From: Dehalococcoidia bacterium
Lineage (GTDB): Bacteria; Chloroflexota; Dehalococcoidia; SZUA-161; SpSt-899
Direction: 5' to 3'
Assembly (NCBI GenBank): GCA_041300025.1
Contig: JBGLNL010000001.1
Coordinates: 1,598,005-1,662,004 of the forward strand
Length of the DNA: 64,000 nucleotides
Shown here: positions 2,736-42,183 of the stretch, piece by piece
Layout of the letters: each line of letters begins with the position of its first letter
Position numbering within the stretch: position 1 is the stretch's first letter
Program-made: the position numbers and the translations under genes
Notes under the pieces: generated by a model
Seen by the model: only the letters and a program-made list of their open reading frames with translations
Told to the model about the DNA's origin: nothing
The model's database searches: none

Positions 2736-4097
2736 ATGGTTTCGAAATTAAAAAACCAGCTTATTGAGATCGTCGGAGAGCGATGGCTTACCGACGATCC
2801 CTGGGAACTGTGCGGCTATGCCCGGGCCTGGAGCTACGAGCCTCATCGACGCCCGGAAATCGTGGTTACTCCGGCAACTACTCAGGAAGTCTCGGAGATC
2901 ATGAAACTGGCCAACGAGACACTCACACCGGTGAATGTCCGCGCCGGCGGTACTACCAATACGGGGGCATCCATCCCGCGCGAAGGCGGTATCACCCTGG
3001 ACCTGAATCGGATGAATGCCCCTATCGAGATGGATGAGGATTCGCAGACCTTCACGGCGCAGGGCGGTGTAACGGTCTACAAGATCATCAAAGACCTTTA
3101 CCGTGGGGGTTGGAAGATCCCATGGAGGCCCGAGTTCGGTAACGCCGTCACCCTTGCTGCGTGGGTAAATTTCAATGGTATGGGTGTGGGCGCTTCGGTC
3201 TACGGCCGGGTAGCCGATTTTGTAGTCGGCCTCGAAGTGGTTCTTCCCACCGGAGAGATCGTGCGGACCGGTTCTTCAAGTTTCGGCAAAGCAGCTAAGT
3301 TCACCCGATATCAGGGGACCGGGCCAGACCTGACCGGCCTTTTCATCGAGTCGCTGGGTACTATGGGTGTCATCACTGAGGTCTACATGCGAATGTACCG
3401 CATCCCGGAAGCTCAGGCTCAGGTCGACTTCGCTTTCGAAGATGAGGACACCATCCAGGAAGCTATCAAAAGGCTTGTCGAGGCTAATATTTCTTACGCT
3501 ATTTGCGTGACAGATGAGCAGATGAGCATCACCAATCGGCTTCCGCCACCCCCGGGCAAATGGGTTCTTTCCCTGCTCGCCGAAGGATGGCAGGAAGAAG
3601 TGGATTTCAGAATCCGGAAGGCTAAAGAAATCGTGGCAGCATGCGGCGGCAGGGAGTTTCCGCCGGGCGCCCGGGCTGCCGAGTGGGGTTCAGCAGCTTC
3701 TATATCTTTGCCGTATGAGCCCTCTCGAAGGCAAGTATCCTGCGGTGGCTTCCATCCCATTCAGGCTACGAGGGATATCTTCAACGCCTACAACGAGGTG
3801 GGCGAGAAGTACGGGCTCAGGAGGGGAATGGGCTGGTGGGTCTGTGCGAACTACTGCAATCAATTCCCCATTTACGTCTATGACGAAGAAACAGATACGG
3901 ACACGATCTTCAAAATGGTTGGGGAAGTCCATGGGCGCTGGATTGAGGCAGGTTATGTTCCTGACTACCCCGGCCCGTTCCCAAACATGACTCCCCACAT
4001 TGCCCGGCCTTACTTGGAACTCTACCGCCGGGTGAAAAAGATGATCGATCCAAATAATATTATGCACCGTGGCATGAAGCCGGATGTGGCAGACTAA
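2736..4097 (+). CDS. FAD-binding oxidoreductase (GlcD / D-lactate dehydrogenase-like)
   Basis: 453-aa ORF. It carries a PCMH-type FAD-binding N-domain pattern (VVTPATTQEVSEIMKLANETLTPVNVRAGGTTNTG ... ITLDLNRMN). It is followed directly by an Fe-S CCG-domain partner. Confidence 0.8.
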   Translation: MVSKLKNQLIEIVGERWLTDDPWELCGYARAWSYEPHRRPEIVVTPATTQEVSEIMKLANETLTPVNVRAGGTTNTGASIPREGGITLDLNRMNAPIEMDEDSQTFTAQGGVTVYKIIKDLYRGGWKIPWRPEFGNAVTLAAWVNFNGMGVGASVYGRVADFVVGLEVVLPTGEIVRTGSSSFGKAAKFTRYQGTGPDLTGLFIESLGTMGVITEVYMRMYRIPEAQAQVDFAFEDEDTIQEAIKRLVEANISYAICVTDEQMSITNRLPPPPGKWVLSLLAEGWQEEVDFRIRKAKEIVAACGGREFPPGARAAEWGSAASISLPYEPSRRQVSCGGFHPIQATRDIFNAYNEVGEKYGLRRGMGWWVCANYCNQFPIYVYDEETDTDTIFKMVGEVHGRWIEAGYVPDYPGPFPNMTPHIARPYLELYRRVKKMIDPNNIMHRGMKPDVAD

Positions 4098-4106
4098 GGA
4101 GGCATC

Positions 4107-5285
4107 ATGGATTACCCGAAACTCAATGAATATCATTTGAAATTATGGAATGACCAGGCCTGCGGCGTCTGCCAGCGAGGACCGTGGACGCCCTATCCGC
4201 CGCGAGGCCCGGCGCCAGATCGGCTGTGTCCCACTTGGGAACACTATCGCCGGATCTCTTACAGCGCACAGGGCTGGATTCAGGCGGGCCGGACGCTGCT
4301 GGAAGGCAAGCTGGAGATGGAGCCTCGATTTGTTGATTATGTATATGCCTGTAACCTCTGCGGTTCATGTACCAACTCCCGATGCGTAGTGGCCGGAGAT
4401 CAGGTGAATATAATCAAGGCATGGCGCGAGGATTTGGTGAATCTGGGATACGGGCCAACCGCTCCCTGGAAAAAGGATGCCGAACTGATCGAAAGAAGCG
4501 GCAACCGGTTTGGACGTAATCAGGCAGATCGGGCCAAATGGGCAGACGGGATGAATCTCCCCGGAAAAGCCGATGTTGTGTTCTTTGCCGGGTGTGTGGC
4601 CTCCTTCCGCAAGCCGGAACTGGCACAGGCAACGGCAAAGGTTCTCAAAGCCGGGGGTGTCGACTTCGCCATATTAGGCGAAAATGAATTCTGCTGCGGC
4701 AATCCGCTGGAACAATCCGGGCAAGCAAAGGCCTATGAGGAAGTTGCCAGGAGAAATGTGGCTGCTTTACAGGAAGCCGGTGCTAAAACAGTAGTAACCG
4801 CCTGTGCCTGCTGCTTCCATAATCTGGCGGTACAATATCCAAAGGTGGTTGGTAAACTGCCGTTTAAGGTGATCCATCAGGTGGAGTTGCTCTCGCAACT
4901 GGTGGCCGAAGGCAGGATTAAGCCGGTCAAAGCCCCTGCTGGAAAGATGACATACCAGGACCCCTGTCACCTGGTTCGGATGGGAGCTAAGATATACAAC
5001 GAACCGAGGTCGGTGATCCAGTCTGTTCCGGGAATGGACTATGTCGAGATGGAAGCCAGCAAGCGAGCATCCTGGTGCTGCGGACGAAATCCGGTGGAAC
5101 AGCCGGAACTGGCGATGACCACCGGGCAATACCGGATAGAGGATGCCCAGTCGGCCGGTGCTGAGACCATCCTCACGGCCTGCTCTTTCTGTAACTGGAG
5201 TTTGGGGCGGGCGGCGAAGGACATGGAGACTAATGTGAGGATTATGTCAATAGACCAGATGCTGACCGAATCGATGGGAATGTAG
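4107..5285 (+). CDS. Fe-S oxidoreductase with two cysteine-rich CCG domains (GlcF/HdrD-like)
   Basis: 392-aa ORF. Cys clusters CNLCGSC, FFAGCVASF...EFCCGNP and YQDPCHLVR...WCCG match the 4Fe-4S plus tandem CCG architecture. Confidence 0.8.
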   Translation: MDYPKLNEYHLKLWNDQACGVCQRGPWTPYPPRGPAPDRLCPTWEHYRRISYSAQGWIQAGRTLLEGKLEMEPRFVDYVYACNLCGSCTNSRCVVAGDQVNIIKAWREDLVNLGYGPTAPWKKDAELIERSGNRFGRNQADRAKWADGMNLPGKADVVFFAGCVASFRKPELAQATAKVLKAGGVDFAILGENEFCCGNPLEQSGQAKAYEEVARRNVAALQEAGAKTVVTACACCFHNLAVQYPKVVGKLPFKVIHQVELLSQLVAEGRIKPVKAPAGKMTYQDPCHLVRMGAKIYNEPRSVIQSVPGMDYVEMEASKRASWCCGRNPVEQPELAMTTGQYRIEDAQSAGAETILTACSFCNWSLGRAAKDMETNVRIMSIDQMLTESMGM

Positions 5286-8631: not shown

Positions 8632-8791
8632 GGCCCACCCCCGTGCTGAGCAGGATCATCACCAGCATGCCCGAAATGTGTCCCCAGTAAGGCCTGGCGT
8701 AGTTGAGTACGCGCAGAAGCAGTTCTTTGGTTACCTTGGGCTGATCATCGCCCGAACGCATGTAAGCATGCAAGCCGCTGCCGTGGAACAT
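8632..8791 (-). pseudogene. ABC exporter (MsbA-like permease/ATPase), N-terminal fragment only
   Basis: Manual reverse translation gives [53 protein letters not shown]. This is typical of the start of ABC exporter TMDs. It is cut off exactly where the fusA fragment ends. Confidence 0.5.
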
Positions 8792-22699: not shown

Positions 22700-23911
22700 T
22701 CAGCTTGCGATCACCGTGGGCCCTTCGCCGAAAGGCTCGTCGGGAACTAGGGATTCCTCCGGCTTATCAATCAGAGCAATTGAAGCCACGCTATCGCCTT
22801 TGTTGAGCCTTATTGTCCTTACCCCCTGAGTGCTGCGCCCGAACTTGGATATCCCTTTCAGCAGGGTCCGTATAATGGTTCCGTTTTTGGTGGTTACCAT
22901 TAACTGCTGGTTCAGGTCTACCACCGCAGCGTCTTTTACCGGGCCGGTTTTTTCGTTTACAAGGTGGGCCCGTATCCCACTACCGCCGCGGATTTGCTGG
23001 CGGTATTCGTCTACAGGAGTGCGTTTCCCGTACCCGTTCTGGGTGACTGTCAGCACGAATGCGTTGGGGCGAATAATATCCATGGCTACCGCCCGGTCAT
23101 CGCCGATTAGCCGGATGCCGCGAACCCCTCCGCTGGTTCGTGAGGCGGTGCGCAGTTTGTCAACTGAAAATCTGATGGACTGCCCTTTACGTGTGACGAT
23201 AATAGCATCATTTTCCTGGGTTGCAGCCTTTACCGAGATCAGGCTATCGCCCTTTTCAACATTCATCGCTATGATCCCGGTACTTCGGATAGCGGAGAAC
23301 CGTTTGAGTTCGGATTTTTTAACCTCCCCTTTTTCGGTGGCCATGACAATGAAACCATCCTCCGGGAAATTAGAGGCCGACATTATAGCGGTGATATGCT
23401 CATTGTTTTCTATGGGAATCAGATTTATTATGGGCAATCCTTTGGCCTGGCGGGTGCTTTCCTGGGGCAACTGATAGCATTTGAGGCGGAAGACCCGACC
23501 TCTGGTGGTGAAGAAAAGCAGGGTATCGTGGGTATCGGTGATGAGCAGATGGCGCACATCATCGGTTTCCTGCACCTTCATCCCGCTGACCCCCTTGCCT
23601 CCCCTGTGCTGGGTCCGGTATGTATGGCTGGGCAACCGTTTGACATATCCGCGGTCGCTCACGGTAACCACTACCTGCTGATGGGCTATCAGTTCCTCGT
23701 CGGTGAAACCCCCTATCTCCTCGTCATTTAACTCTGTACGGCGCTCATCACCATACTTTTCACTGATTCTGAGCATTTCTTCCTTGATGAGATAATCGAT
23801 TTTTCGGGGATTGGCGAGCAGGTCTTCCAGATAAGCGATGGTCTGTAAAAGTTCGGCGTATTCGTCGTCGATTTTCTGCCTTTCCATTGCTGCCAGCCGG
23901 CGCAGTTGCAT
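22700..23911 (-). CDS. gyrA: DNA gyrase subunit A, 3' part (end of the coiled-coil/tower region plus the C-terminal beta-pinwheel domain)
   Basis: [61 protein letters not shown], then repeated GyrA-CTD blades ([78 protein letters not shown]). It is part of track ORF 22700..24775. Confidence 0.9.
23813..23911 (-). repeat. 99-bp segment identical (reverse complement) to 53158-53256
   Basis: Base-by-base comparison by eye finds a 99/99 match. It encodes [33 protein letters not shown] in both copies. Confidence 0.9.
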
Positions 23912-32668: not shown

Positions 32669-32841
32669 TCTTCCATCCTGACGTTATAGCGGAAGAGAAT
32701 AGATCGCTGAATGTGCTAGAATCATTCCTTGATTTCCTGACTTCTTCAGTGGTCATGATATGAGTGGATGAGATCTTTTGAGAATTGGGGGATTTTGGTT
32801 CACTCGCTACTTGCTATTTCCCCAGAGTAACTACAAAGGTA

Positions 32842-32871
32842 TTGACTAATCTTATCTCTTCCTGGTATACT
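32842..32871 (+). promoter_or_regulatory. candidate sigma70-type promoter for the 32909-35663 operon
   Basis: TTGACT (32842-32847), an 18-nt spacer, then TATACT (32866-32871). Confidence 0.35.
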
Positions 32872-32908
32872 TGATGTTACGTGAAAATTTAACGAAAAGG
32901 GATATATC

Positions 32909-33328
32909 ATGAATGCAATGAAATTATTATTATATTCGGCGATGACATTCATCATCATGCTTGGGGCTGGAATCGCACAGGAAACCTATGAGCCAATACC
33001 CAAGGCGGGAAAAAAATACTGGATTGGTAAAGAGTATTATTTCAAGTATAGCTTTGATAAAAAACCCCGACTGGGCACACTGATCGTGAAGATTCAACTT
33101 TTCAATAAAGATGGAAAAAGAGACACCACATTGACTATCAACGGCAATTCCGGTATGCCCTCGATGAAGGGCCACCATGATTCCGGCGACATCCTTTTCA
33201 AATTAAATAAAAAAGGGGATTATCTGCTGCCGGTCGATGTGGTGATGCCTGGTGACTGGGAAGTCAAAATAACTTTCATCAAAGAGAATAAGCCAATTTT
33301 CCGGGGAAGCGTGAAATTTGATATATAA
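32909..33328 (+). CDS. secreted YtkA/FixH-like domain protein
   Basis: Signal peptide, then NGNSGMPSMKGHHDSG...GDYLLPVDVVMPGDWEVKITF, typical of YtkA-like domains. Confidence 0.55.
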   Translation: MNAMKLLLYSAMTFIIMLGAGIAQETYEPIPKAGKKYWIGKEYYFKYSFDKKPRLGTLIVKIQLFNKDGKRDTTLTINGNSGMPSMKGHHDSGDILFKLNKKGDYLLPVDVVMPGDWEVKITFIKENKPIFRGSVKFDI

Positions 33329-34292
33329 AGCCCTGCTGACAGGAATGCTCTGTTACATGCTCATACCGGATTTATCCCATGGCGGTGATCATCTGCTTTA
33401 TTTCGAAGCACAGGGCATTAGCGGATATTCGCAGCGTGAGGACGAAGTCATCTTCTATTCCCGGAGTCAGGAGGATGTCATGCAGAAGCCCTCATTGGGA
33501 TTTGATTATCTGCAACGTCTTTCCCATCAATCCGGTGACTTCGGCGCTGTGGCCATTCAGGCGCGGGTGGCATATGACGATGATAATTTCGAATTTCAGC
33601 TCTATAATGCATATTTGAAACTCAAACACAAGAGCACGGACATCTGGCTGGGTCATAACCGCCCGGCGCTGGGGCTATCATCCTATTTTGACAGCCATGG
33701 ATTGGTGCTCAGTACGCTTGCGATGAATCATTTTGGCTTCGACCGGGACTGGGGTATCGGAGTGTTCAGGAATTTTCTGTGGGGAGATGCGGGTATTTCC
33801 CTGACGACCGGTTCCGGAATGCCGCTGCATTTCAAGGGGAATTATCTGTTTTCAATCAGAGTATCCAGGGGCATATTAAATCAGGAAAATTATAACTCAG
33901 GGTTTTCCCTGTCTTATGGCAAACTCCTGGACACGATGGGATATCATCTGATGGAAGATGAGACGGAACCATTTGCAATCACCGGAGTGGATTTCACCTA
34001 TCTGTGGAATCAATTTGAAAACCGTTTCGAGATCATGGCGGGTAAGAACAGAGCTCAGAATTCCTTTGCCTTCTTCTATAGATTCGGGATCAACCTGCTG
34101 AATGAAGGGCGTCTGAAATTTGAAGCTCAGCCGGTTTACCTCAAAATGGGAGCTGAACACACCTGCGAGATCTCGATGGGATCCGCTTTCATCGTCTCGG
34201 GGGATGTAACCGTCAGAACGATGTACCATTTTGATTATCCCGGGGATGACCATAAAATCATCTTTCAGTTGTATTACTATCGAAAAGTGTAG
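33318..34292 (+). CDS. hypothetical secreted protein, beta-rich (outer-membrane barrel-like)
   Basis: 324 aa with an N-terminal hydrophobic segment, alternating aromatic/polar strands and an aromatic-rich C-terminus (FQLYYYRKV). I recognise no family. Confidence 0.4.
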   Translation: MIYKALLTGMLCYMLIPDLSHGGDHLLYFEAQGISGYSQREDEVIFYSRSQEDVMQKPSLGFDYLQRLSHQSGDFGAVAIQARVAYDDDNFEFQLYNAYLKLKHKSTDIWLGHNRPALGLSSYFDSHGLVLSTLAMNHFGFDRDWGIGVFRNFLWGDAGISLTTGSGMPLHFKGNYLFSIRVSRGILNQENYNSGFSLSYGKLLDTMGYHLMEDETEPFAITGVDFTYLWNQFENRFEIMAGKNRAQNSFAFFYRFGINLLNEGRLKFEAQPVYLKMGAEHTCEISMGSAFIVSGDVTVRTMYHFDYPGDDHKIIFQLYYYRKV

Positions 34293-34300
34293 GAGCGGAC

Positions 34301-34951
34301 ATGAAGAGATGTATGCTGGTTATGGTTCTGATCACTGCTGTCATGGGTCTTCAGACTACCCTCCGGGCAGCCGTAGGCTGTGATTTGAACGACCCGGATA
34401 GAGATGTCGCCCGTCTTTTTCCCGGTTCTTCCGGTTATAAGACGCTGTATGTATCGATAGACAAAAAAGGCGAAGGGTCGCTTTTACGCGAAATCGAAAA
34501 ACGGTTGGGAGATAAATTTCAGGGTTTGTACGAAACAATCGATGTACCTTATACCATTTATGAAATCTATCAGGGGAAAGAGAAGATTGGGTACATTCAT
34601 GGCGTGAATCAGAAAGGTCAGTACGGTGGCATTCAGGTATTTCTATCGCTTGACCTTGAAGGGAATATCAGATCTTTCTATTTTCAAAAGCTCACGTCCA
34701 GAGCTGCCAAAGAACTGCGGAATCCCGAATTTGCCAAACAGTTCAAGGGGCTCAATCTTTTGGATTTCTATCCTTACGATGTGGTCTCCGGCAAAGGGAA
34801 AACCCCGAACAAAGTGGATGCCATTATAAATCCGGCACCCAAAGCGGATTTTGATTTCAGAGCCGCCCTCCGGGCGACCAAGAAAAATCTGATCTTAATG
34901 GACGAATTTGTCCTCGGAAACAGGTACATCAAATATTTCAAATCGGAGTGA
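34301..34951 (+). CDS. secreted FMN-binding (FMN_bind/NosR-RnfG-like) domain protein
   Basis: Signal peptide; GYIHGVNQKGQYGGIQVFLSLDLEGNIRSFYFQKLTS...FAKQFKGL. Confidence 0.5.
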   Translation: MKRCMLVMVLITAVMGLQTTLRAAVGCDLNDPDRDVARLFPGSSGYKTLYVSIDKKGEGSLLREIEKRLGDKFQGLYETIDVPYTIYEIYQGKEKIGYIHGVNQKGQYGGIQVFLSLDLEGNIRSFYFQKLTSRAAKELRNPEFAKQFKGLNLLDFYPYDVVSGKGKTPNKVDAIINPAPKADFDFRAALRATKKNLILMDEFVLGNRYIKYFKSE

Positions 34952-34961
34952 TGAGATTACC

Positions 34962-35663
34962 ATGCTGAATCTATATAAAGTGTCATATAAAAATCTATTG
35001 CGCAAAAAGACCCGGACCATCCTCACCATCATGGGGATCGCGTTGTCGGCCTGGGTTCTCGCCAGTCTTTTAGGATTTAACAAAGGATATGAAATCTCCC
35101 TGAATCGCGATATCGACAACATGGGGTTTCAACTGCTGGTAACGGCAAAAGGATGTCCTTATGAAGCTGCGACGTTGATGTTGAAAGGAGGAACCGGCCT
35201 CAGGTATATGGATGAATCGATTTCAGATTCAATCATGACGCATTCTGAAGTGGAAAAGGTAACACCGATGCTGATGCAAGCGGTGTTCGATCCGAATAAG
35301 GGGGAAAGCGGCGGAATCACGGCTTATCTGGGCGTGGATCCCTTTACCTTTCCAGGGATGAAGAGCTTCCTGGAGTTCAAACAGGGCGGATGGTTTACGA
35401 ATCCGGACGCCATGGAAACGGTCATGGGATTTGAAGCCGCGGAACTGGAACAGCGGGAGGTGGGCGATTTGCTGTTGATCGCCGAGAAAGAATTGGAAGT
35501 CAAAGTGGTGGGAGTTCTCAAGCGAACCGGAACACAGGACGACGGAACGATCTTCCTGCCCATCCGGACGGTACAGAAAATCTTTGGCAGGAATGGCGAA
35601 TTGACCGGGCTCGGAATCAAGGTTAAAAAAGAAGCCAATATCAAGTATTACCTCAATTACTAA
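34962..35663 (+). CDS. MacB/FtsX-type ABC permease, N-terminal TM plus periplasmic domain only (3'-truncated)
   Basis: MLNLYKVSYKNLLRKKTRTILTIMGIALSAWVLASLLGFNKG... The C-terminal FtsX 3-TM domain is absent and the ORF ends in AT-rich sequence. Confidence 0.65.
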   Translation: MLNLYKVSYKNLLRKKTRTILTIMGIALSAWVLASLLGFNKGYEISLNRDIDNMGFQLLVTAKGCPYEAATLMLKGGTGLRYMDESISDSIMTHSEVEKVTPMLMQAVFDPNKGESGGITAYLGVDPFTFPGMKSFLEFKQGGWFTNPDAMETVMGFEAAELEQREVGDLLLIAEKELEVKVVGVLKRTGTQDDGTIFLPIRTVQKIFGRNGELTGLGIKVKKEANIKYYLNY

Positions 35664-35799
35664 ATATTTAGGAATACTTTACTTTCTCTAAATAAATTTA
35701 TTAACAATAAGGATTATAATTTTTCCTGTTCAGACATTCTTGATACCATAGCTAATATGCGTAGATCGCCTTGAACTACTAAAGCATATGAACCGAGAC

Positions 35800-35818
35800 A
35801 GATCGGAAGAGCACACGT
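35800..35818 (+). other. Illumina TruSeq adapter sequence (19-nt exact match)
   Basis: AGATCGGAAGAGCACACGT equals the first 19 nt of the standard TruSeq read-through adapter AGATCGGAAGAGCACACGTCTGAACTCCAGTCA. It sits exactly where homology of the 35819-36055 gene fragment stops. Confidence 0.85.
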
Positions 35819-36055
35819 GCGGTTATCGCGTAGAACCTTGCTCAAAATTTCACAGACTTTTTTGGGAGAATTAGATTTGAGCCGTTGATAATAAAGATGC
35901 TCGTATAAACCAGGACGCTTGTAAAGCTCTCCGTAATCGTGAAAGCGCAACTTAACTTCCTGTTCGTTTTCGTTGAAATAGAAAAAAGACTCGTCCTGAT
36001 TGAGTTTATGCGGCTCTGTGACGGGGAACCTGATGTTGTATTTTTGATGATTCAT
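35819..36055 (-). pseudogene. N-terminal fragment (~78 codons) of a putative SAM-dependent methyltransferase-family protein
   Basis: MNHQKYNIRFPVTEPHKLNQDESFFYFNENEQEVKLRFHDYGELYKRPGLYEHLYYQRLKSNSPKKVCEIL, with GGAGG upstream of ATG 36055. The track ORF continues through the adapter into unrelated sequence. The family call is from memory. Confidence 0.4.
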
Positions 36056-36318
36056 TCTAACCTCCTGTTGAAATTGTCGAAAAGATGCTTGCCCACGGAA
36101 TTGTGACACAACGATATTTTGTGGGCCATTCCTTTTTTTGTCAATTCACCTTTTGCCCGAATTATAGCACAGTTTTTCTGAACAGATAAAAACGTTACCA
36201 CCCTTTTGCCACATCTAAGCTTTATTCTTTATTCCCTGGAAGCTTAAAAAAGCGAAATCGGGGTGTCGTTTGTAATTGACAAATTCAACAGCTAGGGACA
36301 GGTTTCAGAGACCCGCCC

Positions 36319-37500
<1,182 letters not shown>

Positions 37501-38358
37501 TTAAATCCAGAAATTAATACACATAGCCAGGAAGATCACTCCCAGATAGGGGAAGGAAGATATTTTGTAAAGCCGCCACGAGTCCTTCGATTCCATATTT
37601 CGCACCAGCCGTAAGCCGGCCAGTAACATAATATCTCCGGTAACATTGGCGATGGCGAAAAAGAACCAGCCGAAGCCGGCCACATGCCACAGGAGCAGGG
37701 ATACAGCATACAATACGATCGAGAGGAAAAAGAGGAGCTTTATGGAGCGGGGGTTTTGCATCGTAAGGGGGAAAAAGGCGATGTTCGCTTTGATGTACTC
37801 CTCGCGCCGGGCGATCATCACGCTCCAGACATGCAGCGGAATCCAGGCTGCAATTAGCAGGCACATGAACAGGATGGTCCAGTCAATATCCGTTGTAATG
37901 GCCAGATATCCGATCAGGACCGGCGCACATCCGGCGATCATTCCCTGGAAAACGCACATTGCCCGCTTGCGGTAGACCACCGAAGCGATCGTGCCGGCAA
38001 GCCCGGAAACGAAACACAGCGGATGGAGAAACCAGGCAAGGATCAGCGCAATTACCACCAGTCCGATAGCCAGTGGGAGCATTTTTTCCGGGGGGTAGAT
38101 TCGCCGGGTGGGAAGCGCTCTTCCGCAGGTTCGCAGCATCTGCACATCGACATTACGGTCGAGATAGTTTGTAAGTCCGTTGCATCCCGCGCTGCCCAGC
38201 AAAACAGCTACGAACACCCCGGCTAATGGCCAGCCAGCCGGCGAGCCCTCCGCTGCAATGACTGCGGCACAGAGTCCGATGTAAGTCAGCAGCGCAGTCT
38301 CACGAGGTTTGAGAACATCGAAATAATTCCAGAGGGCCCTCATGGCAGTTTCCCGCAT
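37501..38358 (-). CDS. UbiA-family prenyltransferase (heme o synthase-like)
   Basis: 285 aa and about 8-9 TM; N-terminus YFDVLKPRETALL and NYLDRNVD (Asp-rich motif). Confidence 0.7.
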   Translation of the reverse strand: MRETAMRALWNYFDVLKPRETALLTYIGLCAAVIAAEGSPAGWPLAGVFVAVLLGSAGCNGLTNYLDRNVDVQMLRTCGRALPTRRIYPPEKMLPLAIGLVVIALILAWFLHPLCFVSGLAGTIASVVYRKRAMCVFQGMIAGCAPVLIGYLAITTDIDWTILFMCLLIAAWIPLHVWSVMIARREEYIKANIAFFPLTMQNPRSIKLLFFLSIVLYAVSLLLWHVAGFGWFFFAIANVTGDIMLLAGLRLVRNMESKDSWRLYKISSFPYLGVIFLAMCINFWI

Positions 38359-38395
38359 TCAATGATACTCGATGGCAGCGGAAGCTGTCAAAAGA

Positions 38396-38782
38396 CTACG
38401 AATCTTTCTGAGGCGGCTTGAGCTCAGAATCCGGCGGGTTTATGCCGCTGATATACGCATGGATGATATCATGACGGCGCAGGCATCCCAGTATTCTGGA
38501 GGGGTCTTTGCGATCGACTACCGGGATACGCCCGAAGTCCCTGGCTCCTACCCTGAGCAAAGCCTGATGAAGTGTCTGATCGGGATAAGCCACCACGAGT
38601 GATTTGGCCGGAGTGGCGATATCTTTCACGACCAGATTATGAATATCGGCGCCTTCCTTCCGGGTTCCGGTATGGATGTCCGTAAGGGTAACGATCCCCT
38701 GAAGCCGTCCTTCCGTATCTACTACAGGGAAACCAAGGTGCCCTGTTTGTTCCATATGTCTCAATGCTTCGACAACCGGCAT
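38396..38782 (-). CDS. CBS-domain pair; probably the C-terminal fragment of a larger protein
   Basis: GFPVVDTEGRLQGIVTLTDI and GRIPVVDRKDPSRILGCLRRHDII. The frame is open upstream without a start codon, and homology collides with the plus-strand dehydratase fragment. Confidence 0.55.
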   Translation of the reverse strand: MPVVEALRHMEQTGHLGFPVVDTEGRLQGIVTLTDIHTGTRKEGADIHNLVVKDIATPAKSLVVAYPDQTLHQALLRVGARDFGRIPVVDRKDPSRILGCLRRHDIIHAYISGINPPDSELKPPQKDS

Positions 38783-38789
38783 ATCGGGA

Positions 38790-39307
38790 GACGATTCAAC
38801 GATCTGCTTGCCGAGGTTCTGGATGAACTTCGTTTGGCCGAAGGCATCAAAGACTATCGTGCCCGTCTCATTCTCGTAGGCGGCATAGTCGATGACCCCG
38901 AATACATAGATATCATCGAAGATCAGGGTGGCCTGGTAGTGACGGATTCGATTTGTTTCGGCTCCCGGAATTTCTGGGTGGATGTGGACGCAAGCGCTGA
39001 TGATCCGCTGACGGCGCTTGCTCAGTATTATGTGGCGGATCGGCCTTCATGTCCGCGAACGTTTGGCTTGCACGAGAAGCGCACCGATTACATCAGAAAA
39101 ATGATAGGCGAATTTCGGGTTGATGGCATTATCTTCCAGCGCCTGACCTTCTGCGACGTATGGGGATTCGAGCAGTTCCCTCTCACCAATGACTTCAAAG
39201 AATGGAAAACCCCTTACTTAATGATGGACAGGGAGTATAAGCTAAGCGCCGTGGGCCAGTTAAGAACCAGAGTTCAGGCATTCCTGGAAACACTGGGAGG
39301 CATATGA
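38790..39307 (+). pseudogene. 2-hydroxyacyl-CoA dehydratase family subunit, C-terminal ~170 aa only
   Basis: RARLILVGGIVDDPEYIDIIEDQGGLVVTDSICFGSRNFW...DYIRKMIGEFRVDGIIFQRLTFCDVWGFE...GQLRTRVQAFLETL. The N-terminal half is absent and the exact 5' limit is uncertain (38785-38850). Confidence 0.65.
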
Positions 39308-40602
39308 TGGATGCAAAAACCGAAAAGAGCCTGGAGCGAACCCGCGAGGACATCGCCGTTTACACTTCCATAATCGAGATGATGGAACTGGTTCCCGGTG
39401 ATATGAATCACCTCTACATTCCAACCATGAAAAACATGATCAGGCAGGCAAACAGGATTATAGAATGTATCGAGACCGGCGAGCCGTTTGCCGCCAGTTC
39501 CTTCAGCAATCCCACCGAGATTTTCACCGCCATGGATTTGAACTGGTATTTCCCTTTCAAACAGGCATTTGCGGGGGGCGTGCCTAATCCCCACATGATA
39601 GACGACCTTAAAGGACTCGACGTCATGCCGGTGCCATCCGATATTTGCACCCTCGTCCGGCTGGCTCTCTATTATCTGGATCAGGGACTCCTGCCCAAAC
39701 CCACCGTTTATCTCGGTATCGTTGAGCCGTGCGATGGTATCGTGGGCGTGCACGAAGCGATGAGAACGCACCCCGACTGGCGTGATGTTCCCACCTGGGC
39801 GCCCGACACCATCTACTGGGGAGACGAGAGGGCGTTCGAATACATGGGCAATGGGCTCAAGGACATGGTGAGATTTCTGACCGAGCACACCGGAAAGCGA
39901 CTCGATCTGGATCGGCTGCGGGAGGTGGTCGAAGAATCAAACCGGCAATATCTGCTATGGCAGGAACACGCCGAGCTAAAGCGGGCGGTGCCATGTCCGC
40001 ACAGCTACTTAATGGGAATGCAGTGCTTTTACCAGACAAACTTCGAAGGAGGCGGCAGGCCCGAAACCACGAAGTGGTTTGCTGACCTTGTAGCTGATGC
40101 TGAGAAACGGGTAGAGGAGAACAAACCGGAAGTCGGGAACCAGAAAATCAGAATCCTGTGGTTCGATATCCCGCCGGTCTGGTTTGAGGAATTATTCGGA
40201 TGGATGGAACAGGAATGGGGAGCGATCATCGTTATGGATATGGTGAGTTTCTGCCCCTACCAGTTAATAGATACCAAAAACGAGGATACCATTTTCAGGG
40301 GACTGGCCAGGCGGGTTATGATGGATCCCCCGATGGTCAGGCAGGCGCGAGGATATGCCGATAATTTCCTCAATGATCTCACCAGGATCGTGAGGGATTA
40401 CAAAATCGATTGCGTCATCTGGCCCGGACACATCGGGCATAAAGACGGTGCGGCCAGCGCGAGCCTCATGAGGGAACGCTGTCGTCAACTCGACGTTCCC
40501 TTCCTGCATATCGGAATGGACCAGTTCGACAAGCGCTATATGGGCCCGGATGAGGTCAAAGCCAAGATATCCCAGTTCTTCACGGCAATGGGTCTGGGTT
40601 AA
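39304..40602 (+). CDS. 2-hydroxyacyl-CoA dehydratase family protein
   Basis: 432 aa. Its start overlaps the preceding fragment by 4 nt. EPCDGIVGVHEAM and DCVIWPGHIGHKDGAASASLMRERCRQLDVPFLHIGMDQFD are family-typical. Confidence 0.7.
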   Translation: MMDAKTEKSLERTREDIAVYTSIIEMMELVPGDMNHLYIPTMKNMIRQANRIIECIETGEPFAASSFSNPTEIFTAMDLNWYFPFKQAFAGGVPNPHMIDDLKGLDVMPVPSDICTLVRLALYYLDQGLLPKPTVYLGIVEPCDGIVGVHEAMRTHPDWRDVPTWAPDTIYWGDERAFEYMGNGLKDMVRFLTEHTGKRLDLDRLREVVEESNRQYLLWQEHAELKRAVPCPHSYLMGMQCFYQTNFEGGGRPETTKWFADLVADAEKRVEENKPEVGNQKIRILWFDIPPVWFEELFGWMEQEWGAIIVMDMVSFCPYQLIDTKNEDTIFRGLARRVMMDPPMVRQARGYADNFLNDLTRIVRDYKIDCVIWPGHIGHKDGAASASLMRERCRQLDVPFLHIGMDQFDKRYMGPDEVKAKISQFFTAMGLG

Positions 40603-40631
40603 AGAAACAGGCCATGCAAAAGAGGTGAATT

Positions 40632-41603
40632 ATGTGGATGACAAAAATTACTGAAATGCTAGGAATTAAATACCCTATTATTCAGGGTGCTTTCGGTACC
40701 TTCGGCACAGCCGATTTCGCTGTTCCTGTCTCCGAGGCCGGCGGGCTGGGGATGATCACGGCGGGAGGTTTTGGAACCCCGAAAAGATTCCGCGAGGAAC
40801 TCAGAAAGGCCAAATCAATGACGGACAAGCCATTGGCGGTGAATCTTACCATCATGGGCTGCCCCGAAATTGAGAAGATGCGGGATGTAATCATCGAAGA
40901 GGGCGGAATCGTGGCTGTTGAGACAGCGCCGATGCGGGCTGATTTTCTGGGAAAACCGCTTCAGGAACATGGGATCAAATGGATACACAAGGTCGGCAGC
41001 GTCAAGCATGCACTATCAGCCGAGCGTCAGGGAGCCGATGCGGTGGTCATCGTGGGGTTGGAAGGGGCCGGGTTCAAGGCTATGGATCAGGTTACTACGA
41101 TGGTCAACATCCCGTGGGCAGTAAGGCTTCTTAAGGTTCCTATCATCGCTGCCGGTGGTATAGGGGATGGACGCGGACTTATGGCGGCCCTCATGCTGGG
41201 CGCGGAGGCTGTATATATGGGAACGGCATTCATGACCACTCAGGAATGCCCGATTTCAGCCAGATACAAGCAGTTCCTGGTTGATGCCGACCCGACCAAT
41301 CAAACCATCCGCTCCAAGTGTCTGACTCCACCGAACTCGGATGAGCTGGCCAAACTGATGGCCCAAAAGGATAAGTTGCCGGAACACGAATGGCTGTGGA
41401 AGCTGGAACAGGTCATGGTTGGCGGCACGGCCAAAGACCTGCCTCCTGATATGGCGGCAGAGGGACTGGAAGCGGAAGTGCTGCGCTCGGTGCCGGGTTC
41501 ACTGGCGGTCGGGGTCTTAAACGATATCCCGACAATTAAGGAATTCATTGACAGGACGATCAGCGAGGCAGATGAAATTCGGCGGAAATGGGCATTTCTG
41601 TAG
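40632..41603 (+). CDS. NAD(P)H-dependent flavin oxidoreductase (nitronate monooxygenase / FabK-like)
   Basis: LGIKYPIIQGAFGTFGTADFAVPVSEAGGLGMI and IIAAGGIGDGRGLMAALMLGAEAVYMGTAF. Confidence 0.8.
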   Translation: MWMTKITEMLGIKYPIIQGAFGTFGTADFAVPVSEAGGLGMITAGGFGTPKRFREELRKAKSMTDKPLAVNLTIMGCPEIEKMRDVIIEEGGIVAVETAPMRADFLGKPLQEHGIKWIHKVGSVKHALSAERQGADAVVIVGLEGAGFKAMDQVTTMVNIPWAVRLLKVPIIAAGGIGDGRGLMAALMLGAEAVYMGTAFMTTQECPISARYKQFLVDADPTNQTIRSKCLTPPNSDELAKLMAQKDKLPEHEWLWKLEQVMVGGTAKDLPPDMAAEGLEAEVLRSVPGSLAVGVLNDIPTIKEFIDRTISEADEIRRKWAFL

Positions 41604-41627
41604 ATTACACTAAAAGGGGATTGAACA

Positions 41628-41730
41628 ATGGCGGAAACTGCTAAAGGAGCTGTTTATAAGGGGCTGGGACAACCTTTTGAGATTAAGGAGTTCCCCGTCC
41701 CCGATCCCGAACCGGGGGCAATCCTGGTGA
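41628..41730 (+). pseudogene. N-terminal stub (~33 codons) of a zinc-type alcohol dehydrogenase (MDR family)
   Basis: MAETAKGAVYKGLGQPFEIKEFPVPDPEPGAILV, then homology stops where msrA sequence starts in another frame. Confidence 0.5.
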
Positions 41731-42183
41731 TGTTTCTGGGGCATGGAGTATCATTTCTCCAGTGCCCCCGGAGTGATCTCGACACGGGTTGGATATACCG
41801 GCGGGCATACCCGAAATCCAGCATACGAGGAAGTATGCAATCATACCACCGGGCACGTCGAAGCTGTTGAGGTGACCTTCGATCCGGCAAGAACTTCATA
41901 CGAGGAACTGGCCCGGCTTTTCTTCAATATCCACGATCCGACTCAGGTGAACCGGCAGGGCCCGGATATTGGGGAGCAGTACAAGTCGGCTATTTTCTAT
42001 CTGAATGAGGAACAAAAGCGAATCGCCGAATCACTCATCGAGATATTGGAAGGGAAGGGTTACAACGTTGCCACCGAGCTGATTCCGGCTTCCGATTTCT
42101 GGGAGGCTGAGGGATATCATCAGGATTACTACGAAAAGAAGGATGGCCAGCCCTATTGCCATACTTATACAGAAAGGCTTTAG
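41731..42183 (+). CDS. msrA: peptide-methionine (S)-S-oxide reductase, lacking its first ~10 codons and start codon
   Basis: Begins CFWGMEYHFSSAPGVISTRVGYTGGHTRNPAYEEVCNHTTGHVEAVEVTFDP (the active-site GCFWG is cut). An in-frame TGA lies immediately upstream at 41728. Confidence 0.85.
   Translation, partial: CFWGMEYHFSSAPGVISTRVGYTGGHTRNPAYEEVCNHTTGHVEAVEVTFDPARTSYEELARLFFNIHDPTQVNRQGPDIGEQYKSAIFYLNEEQKRIAESLIEILEGKGYNVATELIPASDFWEAEGYHQDYYEKKDGQPYCHTYTERL

Follow-up and report, generated by a model that had tools for sequence, protein, structure and literature searches.

A TruSeq adapter stub between two truncated genes as the likely mark of a hidden contig end in a Dehalococcoidia-type Chloroflexota MAG deposited as a single record

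Two unrelated truncated genes meet at what appears to be an Illumina adapter in the window (the whole stretch of DNA that was analysed, 64 kb in length), which raises the question of whether the junction belongs to the organism or to its assembly. The window forms part of the single contig of its source assembly (hereafter the genome record; 1,771,430 bp, no N, 77.8% completeness, 49.4% GC). Coordinates of five digits or fewer are window positions, and larger ones, marked "genome", are positions in the genome record. Our reading, to which we give a probability of about 0.9, is that the site combines two assembly artefacts, in a MAG of Dehalococcoidia-type Chloroflexota deposited as one pseudo-contig, and that the adapter marks a hidden contig end. 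There are two separate breaks at the site, 35642|35643 and 35818|35819, with different causes.

The sequence AGATCGGAAGAGCACACGT at 35800–35818 on the plus strand is identical to the TruSeq Read-1 adapter over the first 19 bases of the latter (19/19), where the test for a read-through stub was exact identity with the 5′ start of the adapter AGATCGGAAGAGCACACGTCTGAACTCCAGTCAC. The twentieth base departs from the adapter (G instead of C). Base 35818 (T) fits both the adapter and the native methyltransferase gene, so the boundary is uncertain by 1 nt. No second match to AGATCGGAAGAGCACACGT with up to three mismatches was found elsewhere in the window, and no match was obtained in 100 dinucleotide shuffles of the window (0/100 shuffles). 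An earlier note on this DNA had named the 19-mer as the start of the TruSeq adapter and as a trace of untrimmed Illumina sequence, and the exact match together with its absence from the shuffles bears this out.

To the left of the site, the native part of the first piece (piece A; 33011–35642, plus strand) aligns without gaps and at 99.47% identity to positions 1–2632 of a 6,167-bp short-read MAG contig of the same species from another sample (L005; GCA_041309485.1, contig JBFYZN010000091.1). This identity ends at 35642, in agreement with the end of the truncated MacB gene that the earlier note had placed at about 35640. The truncated gene (34962–35642, plus strand) encodes codons 1–227 of 396 of a MacB-type ABC permease. 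The fragment starting at 34962 was matched in Pfam by MacB_PCD only (periplasmic core domain, profile 1–197 of 207), and the FtsX C-terminal transmembrane domain was absent from the window copy in the same search; the intact 396-aa sister permease in L005 has MacB_PCD plus FtsX. Judged by its domains, the window copy is a truncated fragment of a MacB/FtsX family member. L005 also encodes an upstream 216-aa protein identical to that of the window, and beyond the break it encodes, after the rest of the 396-aa permease, an ABC ATPase, a Na/alanine symporter and a sigma factor. No part of these 3.5 kb of L005 past the break occurs in the genome record. The native MacB 30-mer beside the break had no match in JGI metagenome contigs, and the exact chimeric 233-aa MacB product is not on record elsewhere. 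We infer, from piece sizes only, that piece A begins near 32840; alignments of relatives around this left end are lacking over 32669–32908, which is intergenic.

To the right of the site lies piece B (35819–38790; 2,972 bp), which is cut at both ends and carries the 5′ fragment of a methyltransferase gene, tgt, a UbiA-family prenyltransferase gene and a CLC/CBS channel gene of which the last 130 codons are present. The methyltransferase fragment (35819–36055, minus strand) comprises codons 1–79 of 260 of a class I SAM-dependent enzyme, and tgt (tRNA-guanine transglycosylase; 36319–37485, minus strand) is intact (Pfam TGT, E = 6.8e-164). A second short-read MAG contig of the same species, again from another sample (L006; GCA_041299895.1, 4,681 bp), has the gene order UbiA, TGT, methyltransferase (full 260 aa, class I SAM) and AhpC. 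The window from 38535 down to 35818 matches L006 1–2718 at 98.2% identity, and the window tgt is 99% identical to that of L006 (P0121). On this alignment, tgt anchors piece B to its native locus, and the methyltransferase fragment sits in its native place beside tgt, cut after codon 79. Neither the exact tgt product nor the exact UbiA product is on record elsewhere.

The point at which the methyltransferase gene breaks is sharply defined. The earlier note had observed that the minus-strand gene, which has a plausible start (MNHQKYNIRF...KVLRDNR), loses homology at the adapter edge, and alignment to relatives and to L006 places the break at 35818|35819. A full-length copy elsewhere in the genome record (genome 263339–264121, minus strand) and 13 family members all continue RIEM(S/T)ELRVLDLGAGNG in the alignment where the window gene breaks, and reading through the 19-mer yields the nonsense TCALPICLGS... 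in place of IEM(S/T)ELRVLDLGAGNG. The 79-codon fragment has no Pfam match and ends 10 codons before the SAM-binding motif VLDLGAGNG; both this motif and the Methyltransf domain are present at genome 263339–264121 and in L006. A check put forward in the earlier note, whether the 19-mer recurs in independent, adapter-free long-read assemblies, comes out in favour of the note as far as short-read MAG contigs go: L005 and L006, both of this kind, carry the respective gene intact and contain neither adapter nor filler.

The continuation of the methyltransferase locus was located within the genome record itself. L006 2391–4681 matches genome 264211–261921, which lies 1.37 Mb from the window. The two places overlap in sequence, with 35818–36145 (328 bp) being 95.1% identical to genome 263884–264211. 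Measured against L006 over this overlap, the copy in the window carries 3 mismatches and the distant copy 17, and together they form the two arms of a strain-variant bubble at one native locus. Two other arrangements were considered. The copies are not two real methyltransferase paralogues: they share no more than 328 bp, and both fall within one locus on L006. Nor is 36145, where the duplicated stretch ends on the right, the point of a chimeric join, given that L006 is colinear through this position.

The native methyltransferase gene has an adapter-like AGATCG.AGCACACG of its own within the codons for VLDLGAGNG, 25 nt past the break; on the plus strand of the LDLGAGNG codons (genome 263846–263859) it reads AGATCGAGCACACG, which equals the adapter core minus 4 nt. 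This motif may be a coincidence or, more speculatively, permissive adapter trimming may have thinned coverage there. Its having mediated the join by mis-priming or template switching is ruled out, as the 17 nt expected after the motif are absent from the window. Separately, matches to the 260-aa methyltransferase at 70–85% identity were labelled Cyanobacteria, Methylovulum, Nitrosovibrio, Planctomycetota, Polyangiaceae and Syntrophorhabdaceae, and such unusually high conservation over distant lineages suggests that the gene has often been transferred horizontally.

The genome record as a whole consists of many short de Bruijn-graph contigs or scaffolds laid end to end with no spacers and is not a contiguous chromosome. 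Maximal exact repeats in the record are capped at 99–101 nt (26 of 99 nt, 6 of 100 nt, 3 of 101 nt and none longer), which is a signature of the terminal overlaps of de Bruijn-graph contigs with a final k of ~99–100. Edges of the 99-nt repeats coincide with an adapter stub at genome 880999 (site 1, described below), with the truncation junction 8631/8632 and with a synteny break at 23911/23912. The single contig L006 splits over two places in the record 1.37 Mb apart, and at least four places in the record are matched by a 17-kb stretch of L007, a related JGI contig of 65 kb. In four same-genus genomes, the sequence matching the window up to 38790 and that matching it from 38792 onwards are on different contigs, and a second synteny break against the same four genomes falls at 41728–41731, with its sides also on different contigs. 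Between these two breaks lies piece C (38791–41729; 2,939 bp), an unrelated locus that starts inside an HGD-D dehydratase gene. At the adapter-free junction 38790/38791, a CBS domain from profile position 14 abuts an HGD-D domain from position 170 of 342, which begins at the first codon past the junction. Lastly, GC skew per 10 kb, computed for this record alone, had a lag-1 autocorrelation of 0.12, random-looking runs of sign and no long-range structure.

The order of the pieces appears to follow their size, although only approximately. The spacing of successive 99-mer copies, ~9.5 kb at 0.49 Mb, has dropped to ~2.5 kb by 1.75 Mb, and piece sizes in the window run from 2,972 to 2,939 bp and then through averages of ~2,887, 2,875 and 2,842 bp. 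Strict size sorting is rejected on account of local breaches (successive spacings of 6384, 8878, 6299, 6526 and 6728) and of the last ~17 kb, which are unordered. Boundaries were called from terminal 99-nt exact repeats with partners elsewhere and/or from sharp synteny breaks against same-genus genomes. By these criteria, further hidden boundaries in the window lie at 8632, 23911, 38790, 41729, 47505 or 47603, 53158 or 53256, and 58940. The pieces there measure ~2.84–3.07 kb, and no adapter was found on any of these further window boundaries.

Relatives in the order are represented by MAGs of 20–550 contigs, except for one other single-record incomplete genome (G026; same order, ~2.1 Mb, 70% completeness), which may be a concatenated MAG of like kind. 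A separate observation concerns L007, in which positions 2883–4653 are 93% identical to genome 1062022–1063792 while the surrounding genes are ~80% identical. This 1.8-kb stretch, without a called gene, sits between an integrase gene and a CLC channel gene; a conserved RNA gene is one possibility and a mobile element another.

The focal stub is one of four in the genome record. The 13-nt adapter core has four copies there versus ~0.05 expected, and a reversed control pattern of the core has none. Site 1 (genome 880999–881017, minus strand; 19 nt, Read-1) cuts an M20 peptidase gene and, on the far side, a B12/radical-SAM gene; native sequence abuts the stub on both sides, the flanks are on different contigs in relatives, and the stub abuts a terminal 99-mer (genome 880901–880999). 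Site 2, the focal site (genome 1633804, plus strand; 19 nt, Read-1), shares the stub length of site 1 and comprises the cut MacB gene, the 157-bp filler and the cut methyltransferase gene. Site 3 (genome 1703455–1703469, minus strand; 15 nt, Read-2 type) cuts an ImmA/M78 peptidase gene, and site 4 (genome 1761013–1761046, plus strand; full 34 nt, Read-1) has HGD-D gene fragments on both sides. The forward stubs (focal and site 4) end the piece at their left, and the reverse-complement stubs (sites 1 and 3) open the piece at their right, where the true contig ends are our inference and not taken from the original assembly. This orientation agrees with the pattern described for adapter contamination in microbial genome databases, in which forward copies are found at contig ends and the reverse complement at contig beginnings (PMC11536531).

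Site 4 has a history of its own. Two relatives carry both flanks on contiguous sequence, and where they have ~176 nt of native DNA the genome record has the 34-nt adapter instead. The better reading is that true neighbours are separated here by a scaffold gap that was collapsed, so that not every adapter site is a random concatenation boundary. Site 4 lies in the unordered tail of the record. In these last ~17 kb some adjacent pieces are true neighbours with ~176–190 nt missing relative to two same-genus genomes, which looks like scaffold gaps from which the Ns were dropped. At site 3, an AT-rich (28–48% GC) gene for an ImmA/IrrE-type metallopeptidase adjoins a helix-turn-helix-like gene (genome ~1703470–1704718). 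Neither gene had a match in four same-genus genomes, and both genes probably belong to a prophage remnant or mobile element that this strain carries natively.

Between the MacB fragment and the adapter lies a filler of 157 bp at 28.7% GC (35643–35799), which ends directly at the adapter and whose AT content is reached by only 0.08% of same-size genome windows. The earlier note had described ~160 bp of very AT-rich sequence with no coding signal; length and composition were confirmed, while the lack of coding signal needs qualifying, in that one minus-strand frame resembles, over a short length, the final 27 codons of a gene (...LGSYALVVQGDLRILAMVSRMSEQEKL, then a stop) followed by AT-rich non-coding DNA. 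No second copy of the filler was found in the genome record. Searches by exact 32-mer and back-translated peptide pattern gave no match in species-representative genomes, nor did an exact 24-mer in JGI metagenome contigs or viral contigs, nor did blastn against plasmids and phages (a phage set that would include phiX174, which speaks against that source) or against 49 genomes of the same order. The filler is alien to its surroundings, and we read it as the 3′ end of a sequenced library insert.

The sequence of events that we propose is as follows. Short assembler pieces (final k ~99–100; ~3 kb near the site) were joined end to end, apparently in a rough order of decreasing size. Piece A is native up to 35642 in the MacB gene, its last 176 bases consisting of the 157-bp foreign insert and the 19-nt adapter. 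This tail may have arisen from a short library fragment that was read through into the adapter; in a coverage gap, with no competing sequence, such a read-through read would have extended the contig end. Piece B, which starts at 35819 inside the methyltransferase gene, is simply the next piece in the file; its true continuation lies 1.37 Mb away, and it was at the strain-variant bubble that the assembly broke. Pieces pasted end to end in this manner would make artefacts of both broken genes and of their apparent neighbourhood.

The part of this account that is the least firm is the origin of the MacB|filler junction (35642|35643). We lean, at somewhat better than even odds, towards a chimeric library molecule or read. 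The alternative, genuine DNA specific to the strain (for example, where an inserted element ends), is favoured less and we consider it rather unlikely. The filler would then be real population DNA, namely one edge of an AT-rich mobile element or island, as yet unsampled, that lies in, or replaces part of, the macB operon of the dominant strain, and only the adapter and the join to piece B would be artificial. At a final k near 99, an assembler could extend 157 bp beyond MacB only with reads that physically span 35642|35643, and a 150-nt read with 19 nt of adapter could presumably not have reached that junction, so that more than one fragment would be needed. This speaks for real DNA, whereas the operon is intact in the 99.5%-identical sister genome, and no match to the filler came from the 49 genomes of the order or from the other collections searched. 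Also in favour of real DNA, the genome record lacks the remainder of the macB operon; however, this absence means little because the bin is only 77.8% complete. The record does contain other AT-rich island DNA that is absent from relatives (e.g. the ImmA/XRE region at site 3), and the filler has one frame that resembles the 3′ end of a gene, yet 157 bp is too short for a terminal repeat or target-site duplication to be assessed. Should the filler be the edge of a mobile element, one of the two breaks would be biological, and the adapter and the methyltransferase join would still be artefacts.

A different role for the adapter was put forward in the earlier note, in which the adapter drove a chimeric join; that is, the assembler itself built a chimeric contig in which untrimmed adapter k-mers bridged two unrelated regions. 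Adapter sequence is a shared hub in assembly graphs, and at this site it stands at the meeting point of two unrelated truncated genes; both points count in favour of this version. Nevertheless, we regard it as quite improbable, since an adapter of only 19 nt cannot bridge at the final k of ~99 that is implied by the terminal overlaps, and a forward adapter directly before genomic DNA requires a second chimeric molecule. The adapter at site 4, between true neighbours, does indicate that certain adapter sites are internal to a scaffold or contig. Like junctions are, however, common without any adapter (38790/38791, 23911/23912 and 8631/8632), and piece B at 2,972 bp fits the size series (the four preceding pieces averaging ~2,977 bp, the next 2,939 bp), which a fused A+B of at least 5.8 kb would not. 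The adapter is thus not the cause of the join, because adapter-free junctions share the same anatomy and because the continuation of piece A is missing from the bin while that of piece B is found elsewhere in the record. What stands of the earlier claim is the untrimmed adapter, the artificial truncation of both genes, the alien filler and the non-biological neighbourhood; what lacks support is the word "driving". Finally, a native 19-mer resembling the adapter by chance has a negligible probability: although the AGATCG.AGCACACG of the native methyltransferase shows that partial resemblance arises naturally, the expectation is ~5e-7 per window (the arithmetic of the earlier note is right), the record holds four stubs, one of them of 34 nt, translation through the 19-mer is nonsense where the family has a conserved reading, and the two genes that the 19-mer interrupts are whole in sister assemblies, so that L005 and L006 refute this explanation for practical purposes.

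We therefore return to an adapter-marked contig end hidden by concatenation, the value of which lies in quality control, without biological significance, and as a warning on this record. The genome record is used as a species-representative, yet it is a spacer-free string of several hundred short pieces, with ~8 or more hidden junctions in this 64-kb window alone. Owing to the spacer-free concatenation, no hidden junction can be trusted for calls of gene order, operons, pseudogenes or fusion proteins, or for repeat counts. At the focal site three false products result: a 233-aa "MacB" with a filler-encoded tail, a methyltransferase fragment of 113–131 aa that reads through the adapter, and a spurious macB/tgt neighbourhood. 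An exact-repeat length capped at the assembler k, together with adapter stubs that seem internal, offers a quick diagnostic for such records. Adapter read-through at contig extremities belongs to the class of contamination screened by NCBI VecScreen and FCS-adaptor.

Three known kinds of artefact can be compared with the site. Chimeric fragments or reads that extend low-coverage contig tips are a candidate, with a real strain-specific junction as the less favoured alternative; the likeness consists of an abrupt switch, without microhomology, to a very different composition, with the contig ending soon after. The genome record resembles a concatenated MAG pseudo-molecule in being a single record with incomplete markers and scattered terminal k-overlaps, in which truncated genes abut without intergenic DNA, replication skew is lacking and native neighbours lie far apart. 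It differs in having no spacer Ns, in an order that appears to be roughly by size instead of random, and in a short tail that holds true neighbours with collapsed gaps of ~180 nt.

The closest comparison is with Illumina adapter contamination at contig extremities, as described in a Moeller-lab study (BMC Genomics 2024; PMC11536531). Unlike such cases, the contig ends are here hidden by spacer-free concatenation, and because the pieces are concatenated without spacers the focal stub has the appearance of an internal feature that fuses two genes. A further difference is the 157-bp foreign insert between native sequence and adapter, which is absent at the other three stubs of the genome. In all else the likeness is close: the universal AGATCGGAAGAG core opens the focal stub and the Read-1-specific CACACGT comes after it, the stub faces outward from the end of a piece while reverse-complement copies stand at piece beginnings, stubs occur far above chance in one assembly, and the site coincides with a contiguity break. 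The site is ordinary adapter read-through contamination at a contig extremity and not a real biological feature.
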